Shown: positions 45,264-53,705 of the stretch, piece by piece
How the letters are laid out: every line of letters begins with the position of its first letter
Position numbering within the stretch: position 1 is the first letter of the stretch
NCBI RefSeq assembly: GCF_053078305.1
Contig: NZ_CP166879.1
Direction: 5' to 3' (one strand)
Length of the DNA stretch: 64,000 bases
The notes under the pieces: model-generated
The model's input: the letters and a program-made list of their open reading frames with translations, nothing else
The model's database searches: none
What the model was told of the DNA's origin: nothing
Translations under genes and position numbers: made by a program

Positions 45264-46256
45264 CTAATCGATGGACAGTTTATGGACACTTTCAGCCAGC
45301 GGATTAAAGCTGATTGCATCCTGTAAAAAGTCCGGCGAAAAATGCGCATACGTCATCGTTTGTTGAATCGTGGCATGGCCCAGGATTCGTTGTAGCGTAA
45401 CGATATTTCCGCCATTCATCATGAAATGTGTAGCGAATGTATGACGCATGACATGGGTGGCCTGCCCTTTCGGTAAGTCCGGCTTCACCTCCTGAAGGAT
45501 CTCCCGAAATCTGAGGTAATCAGCCTGGTACAACAATCCGGTTCTGCGGGTTTTAATTAACGCAAGTACCGCATCAGAAACGGGAACGGCGCGAGATTTT
45601 CCGTTCTTGGTGTTAAAGAACATCACGCGGTTACCTACAATATGTTCCCCACGTAAACCAGCTGCTTCACCCCACCTTGCCCCCGTGGAAAGACACAGAA
45701 TGGCAACACGCCGCGCATCTCCATCGAGTCGTTCAAGCAGTCGTTCAATCTCCTCATCTGAAAGAAAGGCCATCTCTGTGTTCCTGACTTTCAGCTTACG
45801 TATTCCCCGAACCGGGTTTTCGTTATGGAACACCTCACCCTCAATCAGCGAGCTGAACATTGCAGACAAGGCACACAAATCGCGGTTAATGCTGGAAGGC
45901 ATTAACCCGGCCTGTAATTTGTCGGACCGGTACCCGAGCATAAATTTTCGCGTCATCTGACTGGCACGAGGATCACCCATCTCACGGTTTATCTTTTCCA
46001 GTCTGACCCTGTAGGTATCCCCGTAATCCTGGTTACGACCATCAAGCAACCACCAGGCCTCTATCAGTTCGGATAACCGACGCTGATCTGCTGGCTTAGC
46101 CTGCCATGGCTTATCATGAAAATTCTGCAAAACATACCTTTCAAACTCCTGCGCCTTTGACTTCAGGGTAAAAATCTTACGAATCCGCTTTCCTTCCGTC
46201 CCTTGTGGCCTTACATCAACCTTATAACGTCCGTCTTTGAGTTGCTTAATCGACAT
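45264..46256 (-). CDS. int: P2-type tyrosine integrase
   Basis: 330 aa from MSIKQLKDGRYKVDVRP; strong similarity to remembered P2 Int (LSTGARWGEAA, HxxRHTFATHF, ILGHATIQQTMTYAHF); ATG with GGAGGGG Shine-Dalgarno. Confidence 0.9.
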   Translation of the reverse strand: MSIKQLKDGRYKVDVRPQGTEGKRIRKIFTLKSKAQEFERYVLQNFHDKPWQAKPADQRRLSELIEAWWLLDGRNQDYGDTYRVRLEKINREMGDPRASQMTRKFMLGYRSDKLQAGLMPSSINRDLCALSAMFSSLIEGEVFHNENPVRGIRKLKVRNTEMAFLSDEEIERLLERLDGDARRVAILCLSTGARWGEAAGLRGEHIVGNRVMFFNTKNGKSRAVPVSDAVLALIKTRRTGLLYQADYLRFREILQEVKPDLPKGQATHVMRHTFATHFMMNGGNIVTLQRILGHATIQQTMTYAHFSPDFLQDAISFNPLAESVHKLSID

Positions 46257-46325
46257 GATTAGCCCCTCCAACGGATAAATTAACCAAACACTCCCTGCGG
46301 GATGAAACCCGCTCGATGTGTAACG

Positions 46326-46673
46326 TCAGCCAGCATTGCGGCCTGATCGGGATGATTTTTGGGTAACGTCGATTGAAGCCAGATCGCCCTCCGACTGAGA
46401 AGATCCATCAAGAGAGAGAGCCGGGGCAATTTGACCCCCAGCTTCAAACGTTTCATCAGTTGTTAACCAAAGTGCATATTTTTTAAAACGTAAATTTTTT
46501 GTGATCTTTAATAAGATCTCACTTCCGATTCCATCTTGCCTTCCCGTTTCGTAATACCTCTGCGTATTAACAGGAATCCCTGTAAGCTCAAAGAATTGCT
46601 TCCTTGTAAGCCTCTCACTTTTCCGGATCATCAAGATTTTTTCACCGATACTTATTGACAGTGTCGAATTCAT
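46326..46673 (-). CDS. P2 C-type immunity repressor (HTH)
   Basis: 115 aa from MNSTLSISIGEKILMIRKSERLTRKQ; resembles remembered P2 C (EKIVLMRKSEYLSRQQLADLTG, GQIAPAL); upstream of int on the same strand. Confidence 0.8.
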   Translation of the reverse strand: MNSTLSISIGEKILMIRKSERLTRKQFFELTGIPVNTQRYYETGRQDGIGSEILLKITKNLRFKKYALWLTTDETFEAGGQIAPALSLDGSSQSEGDLASIDVTQKSSRSGRNAG

Positions 46674-46774
46674 ACCACTAAAATCCTCGCAAAAGTGTCG
46701 TAATTTCGACATTAAACAAACCAAAACAAACCTTCATAAGGTGCAATAGGCGCACCTGTGCGAGAGGATAACAA

Positions 46775-47299
46775 ATGCGGGACTTCATTGCCGATAAAGA
46801 GTTATCTGACACCGATCACACAACTGGAGCGGCGTACATCAACGCCGATACCAGTCAACAAGAAGCAACAGATAACAACGACGAACAAAAGCCACAGCGC
46901 ACATATAAAAAAGGGGCAACCCTGCGGCTGGATGGCCCAATAGCCGGGCTTTGCTCACTTGAAAAAGGGGCCGCCTACATCGGATTAACAAAAACAGCAT
47001 TACGCGCAGCTCTCCAGCGTAACCAGATGCCAGGGCATAAAACCCGCTCAAACCCTGAAGATGAGAATTCGGATGGTGTTTGGTGGTTTAACGTCAGAGA
47101 GTGGGACAAGCTGGCCGACGAACTCCCGGAATGTGAGCCACCAGAATGGCACAACTGGAAAAGCTACTGGACATACGACCGCCAGAAAAGAAAGTTTACC
47201 CCGGCTGATAAGGAAGATTGCCAGACCGTCAATGGAAAACGGGTTTACAAAGGCAGAAAGTCAAAGCTGGAACAGAGCCAGGATGTAAACGAACGGTGA
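46775..47299 (+). CDS. Cox-like excisionase/early regulator with N- and C-terminal extensions; start uncertain
   Basis: The central segment ATLRLDGPI...AAYIGLTKTALRAAL...DGVWWFNVREWD aligns by eye with P2 Cox; first gene of the rightward early operon, divergent from C. Confidence 0.55.
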   Translation: MRDFIADKELSDTDHTTGAAYINADTSQQEATDNNDEQKPQRTYKKGATLRLDGPIAGLCSLEKGAAYIGLTKTALRAALQRNQMPGHKTRSNPEDENSDGVWWFNVREWDKLADELPECEPPEWHNWKSYWTYDRQKRKFTPADKEDCQTVNGKRVYKGRKSKLEQSQDVNER

Positions 47300-47305
47300 T
47301 GAACG

Positions 47306-47701
47306 ATGAGCGGCAAAAATAAGTCAGAAAAAAACACAACCGTCCTTAAGCAGTTAAGCCTCCTGAAAGAGGAACACAAGGACGCCACGATACTGATGCA
47401 TCTGGAAGGCTCACCGAAAATAACAATCACAACAACCTATAGCGAGTTACACAAAGAGCTTGAAGGATTAATTAACTTTTGTTCAAAGCTAAAAGCGAAT
47501 GAAAACATTGATGACCTGATACTTAAACCAGAAGCAGAGTTCGGGCACTTTTGCGAAAGTAGAGAAAATGGATGCATCGGAATAATGCTATACGCAACCC
47601 GCGGAATAATGATTAATCTGCCCGTTGAGCAGGCTGTGGATATATTCGGAGAAATGGCACTTAATAAAACCACTATTTACAAAAGAAAAATGCCGGAGTA
47701 A
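47306..47701 (+). CDS. Hypothetical phage early protein (lower-GC moron candidate)
   Basis: 131-aa ORF starting 7 nt after the cox-like stop; GC ~40% by hand count against ~55-60% in the rest of the prophage. Confidence 0.5.
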   Translation: MSGKNKSEKNTTVLKQLSLLKEEHKDATILMHLEGSPKITITTTYSELHKELEGLINFCSKLKANENIDDLILKPEAEFGHFCESRENGCIGIMLYATRGIMINLPVEQAVDIFGEMALNKTTIYKRKMPE

Positions 47702-47714
47702 CCCGGCATGGTTA

Positions 47715-47909
47715 TTAGTATGTTGGTCCCTTAGAAAAGTTCCAGGAACTCTTGCGAGGGTATTTATGAAGTACTTTTTCGCGGACATCGTTAGCCAGAT
47801 CTCTGATTTGATCGTGCTTATCATCAGAAGACGGAGGAACTTCGGGGATTTTATCCACGATTTCAATTACTGATTTAAGCATTTTTATTAATTCATCGTC
47901 GTAAGACAT
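47715..47909 (-). CDS. Hypothetical small protein, reverse-oriented inside the early operon
   Basis: 64 aa from MSYDDELIKMLKS with a perfect AGGAG Shine-Dalgarno 6 nt upstream; convergent with the 47306 gene; lower GC. Confidence 0.5.
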   Translation of the reverse strand: MSYDDELIKMLKSVIEIVDKIPEVPPSSDDKHDQIRDLANDVREKVLHKYPRKSSWNFSKGPTY

Positions 47910-48016
47910 TGTTATCTCCTTTTTCTGGTTGTGTGGAAACACCAGAATACCACGCGCCGGGCGTGGTTAAACATCCCGGCACTGATTTTCATTTAACTTA
48001 AACGGGGTTTTCCGAT

Positions 48017-48355
48017 ATGACACAGCGACGCAGCTTCCGCACTGGCGCAGAACGCCACGCAGCCCGTTTCTCAACCAGCGCATCACGCAGCAACTCGCAC
48101 TACAGCCTGCAGGAAACGCACGCCACACCTGACGGGCATCCGGTTAAACAAACCGGTAAACACACCTGGCTGATTAATGATGCCGGAATTGTCATTCACC
48201 GGGGCGCACGCAACCCGATTACCGGAAATACCTGTTACTCCCTGACTCGCGGAGATGAGCAGTTCGGGCAGGATTTCACCCTGCACGAAGCATTAAGAAC
48301 GGCAGACCGGTTAATCAGCGGTCGCAGTTTTCAGCACCCGGAACATCGCCGCTGA
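48017..48355 (+). CDS. Hypothetical phage early protein
   Basis: 112-aa ORF in the early operon; no recognisable motif. Confidence 0.45.
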   Translation: MTQRRSFRTGAERHAARFSTSASRSNSHYSLQETHATPDGHPVKQTGKHTWLINDAGIVIHRGARNPITGNTCYSLTRGDEQFGQDFTLHEALRTADRLISGRSFQHPEHRR

Positions 48356-48374
48356 TAAATAAAAGGATTCAGCC

Positions 48375-48617
48375 ATGATCGAAGCCTACAAAATACTTAT
48401 TAATAATGCGTTGCAGCGTTATCACTTCGAACTCGCAAACCGGGGGGTAACCCGGGACGAAGGACTTCGTAACTCACTGCGGGGCGCAATTATGGGACTG
48501 TATAACTGCGCACTGGGCAGCGATGACCGCGAAGCACTGGAAGAATTAAAAGTTATTGTGGCCGAACTGTTTGAAGGTGAAATCGTTGAGCCTTATTTCA
48601 CAGAGGTGGCAGCATGA
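48375..48617 (+). CDS. Hypothetical phage early protein
   Basis: 80-aa ORF with AAGGAT Shine-Dalgarno; stop overlaps the next start (ATGA). Confidence 0.5.
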   Translation: MIEAYKILINNALQRYHFELANRGVTRDEGLRNSLRGAIMGLYNCALGSDDREALEELKVIVAELFEGEIVEPYFTEVAA

Positions 48618-48739
48618 GCGTATTTCTTTCATGGGTGATTCTGATTATTTCCGTGCTTATGGCGATTGGCATTATGCGAATTATCGAAGCGCTGAAAAAT
48701 ATCGAATCTTTATTTACTGGCGAAGAACGCCGTAAATAA
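48614..48739 (+). CDS. Small hydrophobic (single-TM) peptide, translationally coupled
   Basis: 41 codons MSVFLSWVILIISVLMAIGIMRIIEALKNIESLFTGEERRK; absent from the ORF track (<60 aa); ATGA overlap with the upstream gene. Confidence 0.4.
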   Translation: MSVFLSWVILIISVLMAIGIMRIIEALKNIESLFTGEERRK

Positions 48740-48818
48740 ATAACCAACCGGACAGAAAACATTAAAACCATCCGCATCTGCGGAGGGCTTCACTCAATCC
48801 AGAAACGGAGAAACAGCT

Positions 48819-49097
48819 ATGAGCACCAATACACCTACAGAAATAAACAAACTATTTACCGACCCGGCGCATATTGAATTGACGCAAAAAACGCTGACTG
48901 AAATAACCAATGTACTGGATGAAAGAATATCAGAAATAGATAAAGACAAGCATTTTGCTACTTACATGGCCCTGCAAATGCAAAGCATGGCAATGGTGAC
49001 AGCAAAACAGACCATCAGTGAACTCTATATGAAAAACCTGCGCCTTGAGCACGAACTGGCAGAACTCCGGGCACAGTCCGGCCAGTTTTCAGCGTGA
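48819..49097 (+). CDS. Hypothetical phage early protein
   Basis: 92-aa ORF with ACGGAG Shine-Dalgarno; helical C-terminus. Confidence 0.5.
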   Translation: MSTNTPTEINKLFTDPAHIELTQKTLTEITNVLDERISEIDKDKHFATYMALQMQSMAMVTAKQTISELYMKNLRLEHELAELRAQSGQFSA

Positions 49098-49108
49098 GGG
49101 GCAGGACG

Positions 49109-49360
49109 ATGAACAGCATATTTACCGCCACAAGACGAACCCTGCTGACGCATTTCACCGATGCCGCGGGCCGCGAATTCATGGTGGAAAGTTATTTAAT
49201 CACAACGACCACGCCGTGCCCGTCAGACGCTGATTATCTCTACATCCATCTGGCTGACGGAACACAAATCACCGCGATTGCCAGTACCGTTCGCGAAGTA
49301 ATGACCATCAGAGGGGCATGGAAATCAGAAACACAAGCCCACGGAGAGCTGCGGCCATGA
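49109..49360 (+). CDS. Hypothetical phage early protein
   Basis: 83 aa from MNSIFTATRR with GAGGGG Shine-Dalgarno; stop overlaps the next start. Confidence 0.5.
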   Translation: MNSIFTATRRTLLTHFTDAAGREFMVESYLITTTTPCPSDADYLYIHLADGTQITAIASTVREVMTIRGAWKSETQAHGELRP

Positions 49361-49569
49361 TCAGCAAGTACACCACCAACGCACGTAAACCCGGTAAAGA
49401 CGCACGCCACCACATCGCCGTACTCCGCAATCTGTTACTGGAGGAAATCGACGACTTCACGGCGACGCTGAGCGGTCCGGGCGCACCAGTAACACCAGGT
49501 GAGATCCACCGGGACCTTAAACGCCGTATTGAAAACGCCATTGATTACACCCTGAACCCGACCGAATAA
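49357..49569 (+). CDS. Hypothetical phage early protein
   Basis: 70 aa from MISKYTTNARKPGK; ATGA coupling to the upstream gene. Confidence 0.45.
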   Translation: MISKYTTNARKPGKDARHHIAVLRNLLLEEIDDFTATLSGPGAPVTPGEIHRDLKRRIENAIDYTLNPTE

Positions 49570-50150: not shown

Positions 50151-50269
50151 GTGATCATCATGCACACACAAAAAAACCGCTTGCCATGCCGCAATCAGTC
50201 AGGTTACATTCCCACTGCACCTCATAAAACGGGTGCCGGGATTACCACCCCGCCGACTACACAAGCGCA

Positions 50270-50291
50270 CAACCGCGCCAGCGGTTTTTTT
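50270..50291 (+). terminator. Intrinsic terminator inside the prophage early region
   Basis: AACCGC-gcca-GCGGTT hairpin followed by TTTTTTT. Confidence 0.5.
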
Positions 50292-50470
50292 GTGCGTACT
50301 GTATCGCCACGTCTTTTTCGCGTCAGAATTATGGCGGGGCGTACGGGGCCGACTTCGGTCGGGCCGGGGTCTTGTGTAGCCGGTTGTGGTAACCCTGTAC
50401 GTCTCGCCACCCTGAGATTACCGCCTCGGGTTGGTGAGTTTTCACAACTTACTACACAAGGGGCCACACC

Positions 50471-50698
50471 ATGGCAAACCGCAAACAACAGCGCGTCCGC
50501 GCTGAGCGTCTTCACATCCGCACCGAAATCAACCGCAGACTCTGGCGCGCATCACGCGTCGCGCAAATCATGTACATCAACATGCTGCATGAACACGCAC
50601 ACGCGCTGTCAGACCGTTACTGTGCCGCCGTCTTCAGCTACCTGGCGGATGACCTGGCAGAGCTGCAGGACCTTATCAACCAGCAACACCACCACTAA
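50471..50698 (+). CDS. Hypothetical phage protein
   Basis: 75-aa ORF with AAGGGG Shine-Dalgarno; basic N-terminus, His-rich C-terminus. Confidence 0.45.
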   Translation: MANRKQQRVRAERLHIRTEINRRLWRASRVAQIMYINMLHEHAHALSDRYCAAVFSYLADDLAELQDLINQQHHH

Positions 50699-50766
50699 AC
50701 AACATCCTGAAGCCATCCCGCACCCGTGCGCGGGAGGCTTCCGCACGTCTGTTACCGGAGGTTCTC

Positions 50767-51189
50767 ATGAAGAACGTTAAGGGACTTTCAGATATTCAGG
50801 ATTTTTTTAACTGGATGTGGGCAGTGGATCCCCGGCTGGCTTCCCGCCTGAACGACTGGCACGACTATTACCGCCGCGCCTGTAAACAGGCCGCCAGACG
50901 CGTCACCACATACGGGGATTTCTCCTTCACCGTTGACGGCAGTTACCGCGTGGACGTGAAAGGCGATGGTGATGGTTTTGGTTTTGGTTTATTTCACATC
51001 AACGGAACCGACAGCACCGCCATCAGCTGGTCGTCGTCAGAGATGACGCTTGTTCTGGAAATGACAAACCACAGCGTGGCCGTGAAAGGTATATACACCG
51101 CAGAAGACTTTATCGGTGAATACCAGCGCCTTCTCGTGCTGTACCGGGCAGCGTTTCAGGCGGCAACTGCCGGGGAGTGCGACGCATGA
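50767..51189 (+). CDS. Hypothetical phage protein
   Basis: 140-aa ORF with GGAGG Shine-Dalgarno; stop overlaps the gpA start (ATGA). Confidence 0.5.
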   Translation: MKNVKGLSDIQDFFNWMWAVDPRLASRLNDWHDYYRRACKQAARRVTTYGDFSFTVDGSYRVDVKGDGDGFGFGLFHINGTDSTAISWSSSEMTLVLEMTNHSVAVKGIYTAEDFIGEYQRLLVLYRAAFQAATAGECDA

Positions 51190-53705
51190 GCGACCATAAC
51201 GCACAACTGGCGTACCCGTGGAACGCCCCGCTGCCGGTTATCGATCCTGAAACGTTCGGCAGAGCGCAACCAACCGCATTACGCCAGGCCATTCAGAGCT
51301 ACATCAACGAAGACATTCGCACTGACGCCAGACTGGATGAAGAAACCGTCGCCTTCCTGACAACCACAGACGAAGGGAAGCGAATTAATTCGCATCTTCA
51401 CCACGACGAAGAGCGTCGGATCAGACTGGAAAAACTGACGCGACACAAACGCGAAAATCCACCCACGCTGGTATCTGAAGCCATGGCAGAGCTGCGCGCC
51501 CTGCCGCCGTTTCTTGCCGGTCCGCTCATCCGTGACCTGGCCCGCCTGAGCCGCAAACAGGAGAGCGCACGCCGGGAAGGGCTTAAGAATAACAGCGCAT
51601 ATGCGGCGGATAACTTCGTTCGTCACGGCCTGCGTGCCCGCCTGAAACGTATCGCCCGTGTGAATGAACGCTTTGCCACCCCGGCCTTTAAGGCCACCGC
51701 CGCCCGCGAACGGCTGGATGAACTGCTTATGCTGCCGCAGCTGAGCCGTGACGAAATCCAGCGCCTTGCCACCCTGACCGCCACCGCGTTTTCCGCCGCA
51801 CTGGAGCGCGCATGTGATGAGGTCATCGAAAAGACCGGCAGGGGTGACGATGACCTGTTCACCTGGTTACTGACCTACCAGCCACTGGCACGCATGGCGT
51901 TAAAACTGGGTATCACACCACCCTGCTGGCCGTCGCTGGAAATCAGACCCGACCGCCGCACCGCCCCCGACCCGGAACAGGTGCCGGGTGCGGTCATGCG
52001 CCTTTCCTGTGCGACATGGTGGAACAGTCAGTTAAGACACCTCCGGGACATCTGGCGTGAAGAGCTGTTACGCGCCGCAGGTCTGGTGTCACGTAAGACA
52101 TCGGTATATATCAGCCATGAAGCGTTACTGGACTGGCGCGAAAAACGCCAGCGCACCCGCGATTTTCTGAAGGCCTGGGACATCGAGAACGAAGAGGGAG
52201 AACGGTTCAGCCTTGAGGATATCTACTGGGCAGGTCTCTCTAATCCGCGTAACCGCCGTAACGAGATGATGGCCTGCGTCCGGGGAATGGAGCAGGTCGC
52301 CGAAGCACGCGGCGACCTGGCGTTTTTCGTCACCGTCACAGCCCCTTCCCGTTTTCACAGCGTGAACGATGACGGCAGCCTGAACCCGAAATACTGCGGA
52401 GCAACGGTACGTGATGCCAGTGATTATCTGGTTTACCGCTTTTTCGCCGCCGTCCGCAGGGCCATCAACAAGGCCGGGCTGGGCTGGTACGGCGTGCGCA
52501 CAGTGGAGCCCCACCACGACGGTACACCGCACTGGCACATGCTGGTATTCACCAGCCCGGAAAACGAAGCCCGTATCACTGAAATCATGCGCAACGCCGC
52601 CATCAGGGAGGACCGCGCAGAGCTGGGTGATGATATCTCCCCGCGTTTTAAATGCGAAAAAATCGACCCGGCAAAAGGCACACCGGCGAGCTATATCGCG
52701 ACCTATATCGGTAAGAACCTGGACGCCAGCGCCTTCATGGGGAATGACCCGAAAACCGGCAAACCTTACGTCGATAAGGAATCAGGCAAAACCATGGCCG
52801 AAACCGTGGAGAACGCCATCGGCTGGGCGGCCCTTCACCGCATCCGCCAGTTCCAGTTCTTCGGTATCCCTCCCCGCCAGGTATGGCGCGAACTCCGCCG
52901 CCTTGCCGGGCAGATGGCCCGTAACCCGGCTGCCCCGCAGCGTCTGGACCATGACGACATTGACGCCATACTGGCCGCCGCCGACGTGGGATGTTTTGCC
53001 ACCTATATCACCCGCCAGGGTGGTGTGCTCATTCCCCGCAACACGTACCTGGTCCGCACCGCATACGAAACTGCCGAAGAGGCCAACGACTACGGCGAAT
53101 TCCCGCAACGCATTTACGGCGTCCGCGCCCCGTCACTCGGGGAGCGCTACACCATATGCACCCACCCGGACACCTGGAAACTGGTCAGACGTAAGCCGGA
53201 AAACGAAGACCGCACGGACGAGGGTTTTGACGTTGAGTGCGGCTTTGCCGCACCTTGGACTCGTGGCAATAACTGTCCCCCTGACCAGAATCTGACCATA
53301 AACGACCCGCCAGAAAGGCAGCCGGACGGACGCAGGGAGCAGCGACTTACCCTGCCGGAAGGTGATTTGGGTGAATGGTTAAGGTCACTGACCCCCACAG
53401 AGCGAAAACAACTCACCAGGCAGCTGAAAAACCCGCCACCTGACACGGAAACCGTGAAAAACGGCGGCATCAGTGCGCCCGCTGGCGGCGTTCGCGTGAG
53501 TGTCGCACTGACCGCTGAGCCACACATCACCGCACAAATCACCCGTGAGCTTGATGCGCTGGGCGTGCAGCTGCATGAAAGCGCCGTCGTTTCCGTCCGG
53601 CACGGTGCCCGCGTGCGCCTGGCTGACGGGCGCACCGCGTACTGGAATGACAGCACCCGCCGCATTGATATCACCCCCGCACCGAATACGGAGGCGCCAC
53701 AATGA
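51186..53705 (+). CDS. Rolling-circle replication initiator endonuclease (P2 gpA-like)
   Basis: 839 aa from MSDHNAQLAYPW (ATG with GGGGAG Shine-Dalgarno; the ORF track uses a GTG 9 nt upstream); HUH motif GTPHWHMLVF; size and position as in P2/186. Confidence 0.85.
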   Translation: MSDHNAQLAYPWNAPLPVIDPETFGRAQPTALRQAIQSYINEDIRTDARLDEETVAFLTTTDEGKRINSHLHHDEERRIRLEKLTRHKRENPPTLVSEAMAELRALPPFLAGPLIRDLARLSRKQESARREGLKNNSAYAADNFVRHGLRARLKRIARVNERFATPAFKATAARERLDELLMLPQLSRDEIQRLATLTATAFSAALERACDEVIEKTGRGDDDLFTWLLTYQPLARMALKLGITPPCWPSLEIRPDRRTAPDPEQVPGAVMRLSCATWWNSQLRHLRDIWREELLRAAGLVSRKTSVYISHEALLDWREKRQRTRDFLKAWDIENEEGERFSLEDIYWAGLSNPRNRRNEMMACVRGMEQVAEARGDLAFFVTVTAPSRFHSVNDDGSLNPKYCGATVRDASDYLVYRFFAAVRRAINKAGLGWYGVRTVEPHHDGTPHWHMLVFTSPENEARITEIMRNAAIREDRAELGDDISPRFKCEKIDPAKGTPASYIATYIGKNLDASAFMGNDPKTGKPYVDKESGKTMAETVENAIGWAALHRIRQFQFFGIPPRQVWRELRRLAGQMARNPAAPQRLDHDDIDAILAAADVGCFATYITRQGGVLIPRNTYLVRTAYETAEEANDYGEFPQRIYGVRAPSLGERYTICTHPDTWKLVRRKPENEDRTDEGFDVECGFAAPWTRGNNCPPDQNLTINDPPERQPDGRREQRLTLPEGDLGEWLRSLTPTERKQLTRQLKNPPPDTETVKNGGISAPAGGVRVSVALTAEPHITAQITRELDALGVQLHESAVVSVRHGARVRLADGRTAYWNDSTRRIDITPAPNTEAPQ

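Follow-up and report, generated by a model that had tools for sequence, protein, structure and literature searches.

An ORF of 41 codons at positions 48614-48739 raises the question whether so short a frame, set at the very end of a DUF4754 gene, is a gene at all, and if it is, what its hydrophobic product may do for the phage. The window, to which all positions refer, is the whole stretch of 64,000 nucleotides that was analysed. The ORF and its parts are as follows.

48614..48739, plus strand: small-protein gene, homologue of P88 gp07, with ATG, 41 codons and TAA, encoding MSVFLSWVILIISVLMAIGIMRIIEALKNIESLFTGEERRK.
48620..48676, plus strand: predicted transmembrane helix, codons 3-21, VFLSWVILIISVLMAIGIM, from hydropathy, positive-inside count and conservation in 17 homologues.
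48677..48736, plus strand: predicted cytoplasmic tail, codons 22-41, RIIEALKNIESLFTGEERRK, basic and amphipathic, helical to about residue 34.
48603..48617, plus strand: translational-coupling junction, with an SD-like GAGGTG at 48603-48608 within the end of the DUF4754 gene and ATGA at 48614-48617.

Re-translation of the frame matched exactly the peptide given in the first-pass annotation. The overlap with the upstream stop which that annotation had described was likewise confirmed, the ATG (48614) being joined as ATGA to the TGA (48615-48617) of the DUF4754 ORF, and the SD-like GAGGTG ends 5 nt ahead of the ATG. Over residues 3-21 the Kyte-Doolittle hydropathy averages 2.74 and the Hessa dG sums to -3.3 kcal/mol, values which bear out the single hydrophobic helix proposed earlier. 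The six frames of the window contain 220 ATG ORFs of 30-60 amino acids; no other of these reaches a Kyte-Doolittle value of 2.5 in any 19-mer, and only four have an ATGA overlap with a long upstream frame. An antisense ORF of 59 amino acids (48598..48777, minus strand) was considered and rejected, its frame being interrupted by stops in P88-type loci and its start not conserved. An Rfam search of the region 47900-49400 matched zero families.

The gene lies in a P2-like prophage, the insertion of which adjoins dmsA. The prophage is recognised as P2-like by its integrase, C-type repressor, Cox, GPA replicase, P2-family capsid and gpP-like terminase; portal, terminase and capsid genes are of the P2 type. 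Its nearest phages are those of the genus Xuanwuvirus (P88 group, Peduoviridae) and not P2 or 186 themselves. The features that define the early region are these.

45264-46271, minus strand: integrase.
46326-46724, minus strand: C-type HTH repressor.
46655-46684, plus strand: Pe-like early promoter TTGACA-18-TAAAAT, an 11/12 match, placed, like that of P2, between the C repressor and cox.
46775-47299: long Cox, 174 amino acids.
48017..48355, plus strand: DUF4761 gene, usually upstream of the DUF4754-peptide pair and absent in one locus (L025).
48375..48617, plus strand: DUF4754 gene (PF15946, E 1.3e-15), 80 amino acids, predicted soluble three-helix bundle, with the small gene always directly 3' of it.
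50471-50698: gene of the 'derepression protein' family (PF25738).
51177-53705: GPA replicase.

The first-pass annotation had placed the peptide in an early operon, and this is supported by the Pe-like promoter and by the flanking genes, which are those of a P2-like prophage; the operon including the small gene is presumably transcribed from this promoter. Downstream of the peptide gene several small genes precede the 'derepression' gene. The small gene has cox upstream and gene A downstream of it, and the lysis cassette is far away.

Several further features of this early region were observed. The Cox protein of the window has 174 amino acids, about twice the length of P2 Cox (91 amino acids); the Pfam Cox domain is limited to residues 59-130, and the match to phrog_23196 runs over the full length, including the N- and C-terminal extras outside the Pfam domain. 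Between cox and DUF4761 there is a variable insert (47306-47942), which carries a plus strand ORF of 131 amino acids with no family match followed by a convergent ORF of 75 amino acids (47715-47942, minus strand), and a good minus strand terminator hairpin (47690-47709) is found beside the latter. A related prophage (L001) has a different insert in the same slot, roughly 630 nt longer. Transcripts from Pe must cross the convergent unit (47715-47942) before they reach the peptide gene. Further downstream, the PF25738 gene is preceded in L001 by an ash-family pseudogene, and in the window it is overlapped in another frame by a GTG ORF of 209 amino acids (50151-50780), which is probably spurious.

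Downstream of the small gene there is a short palindrome.

48771..48784: 5-bp inverted repeat TCCGC-N4-GCGGA, motif context 48759-48800, 157-159 nt past the peptide ATG.

It is embedded in the pattern GAAAAC..TCCGC....GCGGAGG.ATTC and occurs exactly once in 22 of 33 loci, being missing in one lineage (L002 type) and in P2 and 186. The loop is variable, and one locus carries a compensatory TCCGT/ACGGA change. On the plus strand the repeat has no U-run; on the minus strand it is extended by G-U pairs, with a U-rich stretch after it (z -3.0), which makes it more terminator-like there than on the plus strand. Since the gene 3' of the repeat differs among loci, the repeat marks the boundary between the conserved DUF4754-peptide module and a variable region. 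It may act as a leftward terminator or a processing site, or it may be a recombination joint. In the window the gene which follows (48819-49097, 92 amino acids) has weak PADLOC matches to the candidate-defence models PDC-M64B (E 3.5e-4) and PDC-M64C (E 3e-3), and the gene content of this slot differs among related prophages.

The comparison of related loci gives the clearest answer to the first part of the question. Thirty-one loci were assembled, drawn from RefSeq genomes, IMG/VR contigs, isolated phages and those assemblies whose DUF4754 proteins diverge most. All but one retain the frame, the ATGA overlap and a purine-rich SD-like motif; the exception is phage record 503458, a visibly fragmented entry of low quality with a deletion of 5 nt. 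The ORF is found in 14 of 14 phage records with DUF4754, one of them frameshifted, and in 10 of 10 IMG/VR loci; two of the 31 loci have no gene call for it, though the ORF is present. Substitutions in the peptide frame give a pN/pS of 0.38 (four independent pairs; binomial P 3.4e-6), and those in the two other frames 0.99 and 2.36. When summed over pairs the ratio is 0.36 for the transmembrane part, 0.41 for the tail and 0.55 for DUF4754, and the constraint on the peptide is at least equal to that on DUF4754. From window to P88 the identity is 63% for the peptide, over 41 amino acids (tblastn, E 6e-9), and 42% for DUF4754; with the RefSeq homologues included, peptide identities range over 63-100%. 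In codons 1-24 the variable sites per codon position number 16/5/19, so that second positions are protected, which is the signature of selection for hydrophobic NTN codons. The ORF is a true gene, under purifying selection in the peptide frame only, and we regard it as highly probable that it encodes a membrane protein. Loss of the frame in homologous prophages, which the first-pass annotation had named as the observation that would count against the peptide, was seen in that one low-quality record only, and the frame is under purifying selection.

The databases already list the gene, whose product is a small membrane protein of the usual conserved hypothetical kind, limited to a narrow lineage of phages. 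Its description as unannotated therefore does not hold: the window protein is identical to RefSeq WP_000110304.1 ('hypothetical protein'), called by PGAP in E. coli genomes, PGAP also calls the variants WP_016232595.1 and, in O157:H7, WP_000021655.1, and the P88 homologue gp07 (SF19_gp07, YP_009113050.1) is listed as 'membrane protein'. UniRef names include 'Prophage membrane protein' (E. coli, Salmonella); these names were assigned automatically. As had been stated earlier, the ORF is below common ORF-size cutoffs, but public annotation includes it all the same; some gene callers skip it, and Shae_phiSM is among the phage records with no call for it. The papers on P88 and PhiSM pass over the gene, and a literature search on DUF4754, DUF4761 and the accessions or strings of the peptide found nothing.

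By sensitive blastn with DUF4754 plus peptide as query, matches were found in 1,389 of 5,426 complete E. coli genomes, about a quarter; in 1,352 of the 1,389 only the peptide portion of the query (positions 238-365) is aligned. An exhaustive HMM search of 1.84 billion representative proteins returned 20 sequences, all of the P88 gp07-like family, and DUF4754 is equally narrow (82 clusters, almost all from Escherichia). The named hosts of the peptide family are E. coli, Shigella, Salmonella and Citrobacter, and the family does not extend beyond P88-like (Xuanwuvirus) prophages of Enterobacteriaceae. The window gene belongs to it by its similarity to P88 gp07, its ATGA position after DUF4754 and the invariant residues S6, W7, L10, A17 and I24. 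Megablast against phage genomes gave nothing for the small gene, the phage homologues being found only with tblastn, and a scan of the early operons of P2 and 186 revealed no hydrophobic small ORF and no counterpart. Sequence searches of Pfam, NCBIfam, PADLOC and PDB gave no significant match to the peptide (0 Pfam families at E <= 1); the sub-threshold matches to phrog_5315 (E 0.045), TatA (E 0.11) and peptidyl-tRNA hydrolase (E 0.22) were treated as noise. One assembly, GCA_946062945.1, has two different P88-like prophages (L020 and L025), each with its own diverged DUF4754-peptide pair, and L025 is without DUF4761.

Which part of the product matters is indicated by natural variation at its C-terminal end. 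The versions of P88 and O157:H7 stop at codon 38 and have 37 amino acids (P88 gene, L004 2931-3044), that of Chuche stops at codon 31 and has 30 (L007 3001-3093), and in PhiR44_2, P0024, P0027 and P0033 the tail is frameshifted, the +1 frame being read to a total of 45-59 amino acids (for example L006 3001-3138 in PhiR44_2 and L024 4001-4180). Across loci the stop is thus found at codon 31, 38, 42, 46 or 60. The phages with shortened or frameshifted tails include viable isolates, which shows that the tail is dispensable and leaves as functional core the transmembrane helix and the juxtamembrane MRII...K segment. Read in the +1 frame, the tail region also shows recognisable conservation (LLTxLKPSNxYLL...).

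Conservation per column was determined from 17 distinct homologous sequences. M1, S6, W7, L10, A17 and I24 are invariant and I11, G19, I20, M21, R22 and I23 nearly so. One helical face holds the conserved S/N2, S6, L10, S/A13, A17, I20, I24, K28 and E31, and on the opposite face hydrophobic residues vary freely. All 17 variants share the pattern [IV]9-L10-xx-[SA]13-[VI]14-xx-A17-[IV]18-xx-M21, that is, a small-xxx-small arrangement ([SA]13-xxx-A17) with V or I at 14 and 18 and I/V-L at 9-10. The glycophorin-A packing motif is LIxxGVxxGVxxT. The pattern of the peptide is similar, with Ser/Ala where glycophorin A has Gly, a resemblance of motif only. To judge from the residues alone, the conserved small-residue face suits tight packing against another transmembrane helix; small-xxx-small arrangements are common in transmembrane helices generally, so that the pattern names no partner and fits self-association equally well.

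An AF2 model of the peptide has residues 1-34 as a single continuous helix. K and R are absent ahead of the hydrophobic segment and number five behind it (R22, K28, R39, R40, K41), from which hydropathy and the positive-inside rule predict an inner membrane protein with its N-terminus out and its C-terminus in. The peptide was not taken for a signal peptide or a lipoprotein, since a basic n-region is missing and the Cys16 found in P88-type sequences, which has no proper lipobox around it, is replaced by Met in the window. In its layout, with an amphipathic helix behind the transmembrane one, the peptide recalls TatA, but the score to NF003393 (TatA) is 12.4 bits against a cutoff of 104 (E 0.11), and the peptide is not a Tat component.

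From these observations we propose that the gene encodes a single-pass inner membrane microprotein of 41 amino acids of P88-like (Xuanwuvirus, Peduoviridae) prophages, with an N-terminus of two residues that would lie in the periplasm, roughly residues 3-21 in the membrane and an amphipathic basic tail in the cytoplasm. Its translation would be coupled to that of the upstream DUF4754 on the Pe early-lytic transcript. Because the gene is on that transcript, the peptide would be produced after infection or induction and not in the repressed lysogen, a timing suggested by analogy with P2, where C represses Pe. It would act through the transmembrane helix and not through the tail, the conserved face packing against another transmembrane helix, and so would bind and modulate a host inner membrane protein as a non-essential accessory of host takeover. 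Target, timing, packing and topology are inferred, and we give a probability of about 0.4 to a modulator of the host acting through packing of its transmembrane helix. The leading candidate target would be the division or envelope-synthesis machinery, and division specifically is a doubtful choice taken by itself. A bolder version, held tentatively and at clearly less than even odds, is that these peptides form a new family of phage host-takeover microproteins which inhibit, early in the lytic cycle, a specific inner membrane machine of E. coli through a glycophorin-like transmembrane interface; the machine may be the divisome, envelope synthesis, a transporter or a membrane protease.

The same conserved face could also serve self-assembly, and the peptide would then be a pore or toxin-like product, an oligomer along the Ser/Ala/Gly face which leaks ions or depolarises the inner membrane and slows the host early. 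The single transmembrane helix, in which several small or polar residues are conserved (S6, S/A13, A17, G19), the heptad-like hydrophobic repeat which runs into the tail at I23/I24, L27, I30 and F34, the one long helix of the AF2 model and the basic C-terminus, as found in many small membrane toxins, are all consistent with this. Type I toxins (Hok/Gef, TisB, LdrD, IbsC) and holins resemble the peptide in having a single hydrophobic helix, a charged end and 20-50 amino acids, but the peptide gene is coupled in a polycistronic early operon and has no profile match to them. More precisely, no match was found to Hok/Gef, TisB, Ldr, Ibs, holin or other Pfam, NCBIfam or PHROG families, nor to ShoB, and the gene does not form a stand-alone locus: there is no promoter of its own and no antisense RNA, promoter-like matches are at chance level (two antisense ones, 9/12, included) and the antisense ORF is not conserved. 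For a holin or antiholin there is neither a Pfam or PHROG match nor an endolysin neighbour, the lysis cassette being distant. Early depolarisation would moreover be harmful to a phage which needs an energised cell. We consider a pore or toxin rather unlikely.

The constant association with DUF4754 suggests another explanation, in which the peptide is the membrane anchor or partner of DUF4754 and forms with it a stoichiometric pair, tethering or regulating it, for example in replication or DNA handling. The two genes are adjacent with the 4-nt overlap at every locus, even where DUF4761 is missing, their taxonomic range is the same and narrow, and the C-terminal segment of DUF4754 is disordered and acidic and could bind the basic tail of the peptide. 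However, this tail is the sole cytoplasmic part of the peptide and is truncated or frameshifted in viable phages. In an AF2 fusion of DUF4754, linker and peptide, run with a paired alignment, the two parts were not docked with confidence (pTM 0.48, peptide pLDDT 57-78), which is weak negative evidence, as the test gave no output of contacts. A natural recombinant bears on the point as well. The locus of E. coli N51 (L003, 3332-3696) combines a P88-type DUF4754, with about 43% identity to that of the window, and a peptide gene of the window type (100%), so that a mosaic joint falls exactly at the ATGA junction between the two genes; such a mixed pair argues against tight co-evolution of DUF4754 and peptide. 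A physical partnership is possible, but as the explanation of the gene it appears unlikely.

Small inner membrane proteins of phages are a known kind of exclusion factor, and superinfection exclusion, in which a second phage is kept from passing its DNA through the inner membrane (T4 Imm and HK97 gp15 do this), was suggested in the first-pass annotation beside division inhibition and a toxin-like effect; the peptide matches no known family of these three kinds. A product made early would fit exclusion in the course of lytic growth. In a lysogen such a role is disfavoured, since the Pe lytic operon to which the gene belongs is under C repression and the gene, to judge from P2, is probably silent there. 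Against exclusion in general, only two residues of the peptide are periplasmic and there is no PADLOC, Pfam or PHROG match to exclusion proteins (T4 Imm, HK97 gp15, P22 SieA). The gene is also outside the P2 defence hotspots described in PMC9122126. Overall this role seems quite improbable.

It could also be supposed that translation alone matters, the ORF being a coupling or anti-polarity spacer which leads up to the conserved hairpin and the peptide itself having no function. The constant distance from ATG to hairpin (157-159 nt) and the variable C-terminal end of the ORF are in accordance with this, but the purifying selection acts at the level of amino acids, with conservative replacements and the invariant S6, W7, L10, A17 and I24, and as the stop is found at five different positions (31, 38, 42, 46 and 60) there is no fixed geometry between ribosome and hairpin, all of which makes a spacer very improbable. 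A chance ORF without function, for which its shortness and lack of a domain match would speak, is effectively refuted by the conservation of the locus and the pattern of selection, given a frame, start and coupling kept across lineages with flanking genes diverged to about 40% identity, a pN/pS of 0.38 (P 3e-6) and a position as the sole strongly hydrophobic ORF of 220 in the window.

Small membrane proteins are under-studied, and those encoded by phages have repeatedly exposed weak points of bacterial membrane machines. The peptide described here is noteworthy mainly for its prevalence and for its conservation relative to its neighbours: it is widespread in E. coli, O157:H7 included, better conserved than the adjoining genes, and has neither a family assignment nor a publication, so that it offers, in phages as tractable as P88 and PhiSM, a well-defined target at little cost. 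Should it prove to inhibit a host membrane protein, it would be a new tool or lead of 41 residues; if it has no phenotype, it would be an ordinary accessory gene.

The reading as a modulator of the host draws on two known systems. One is phage 186, which keeps at the analogous position of its early operon the genes fil ('overexpression blocks cell division') and dhr. Fil, a division inhibitor, and Dhr, an inhibitor of host replication, are products of small, non-essential, overlapping genes placed after the switch genes and before the first terminator. They have no sequence similarity to the peptide and, in distinction to it, no transmembrane segment (best 19-mer Kyte-Doolittle values 1.26 and 0.49), so that the link between the peptide and fil is one of position only. 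The other system is given by SPO1 Gp56 and Caulobacter SidA (29 amino acids), which are very small proteins that stop division by binding membrane proteins of the divisome. In SPO1, gp56 is an early host-takeover gene which inhibits division (PMC6873191). Homology of the peptide to small membrane division inhibitors is absent, the exhaustive profile search having given only its own family, and the hosts are different. The comparison with Gp56 and SidA is one of mode of action only, both being small membrane proteins which act on the host in the way proposed here for the peptide.
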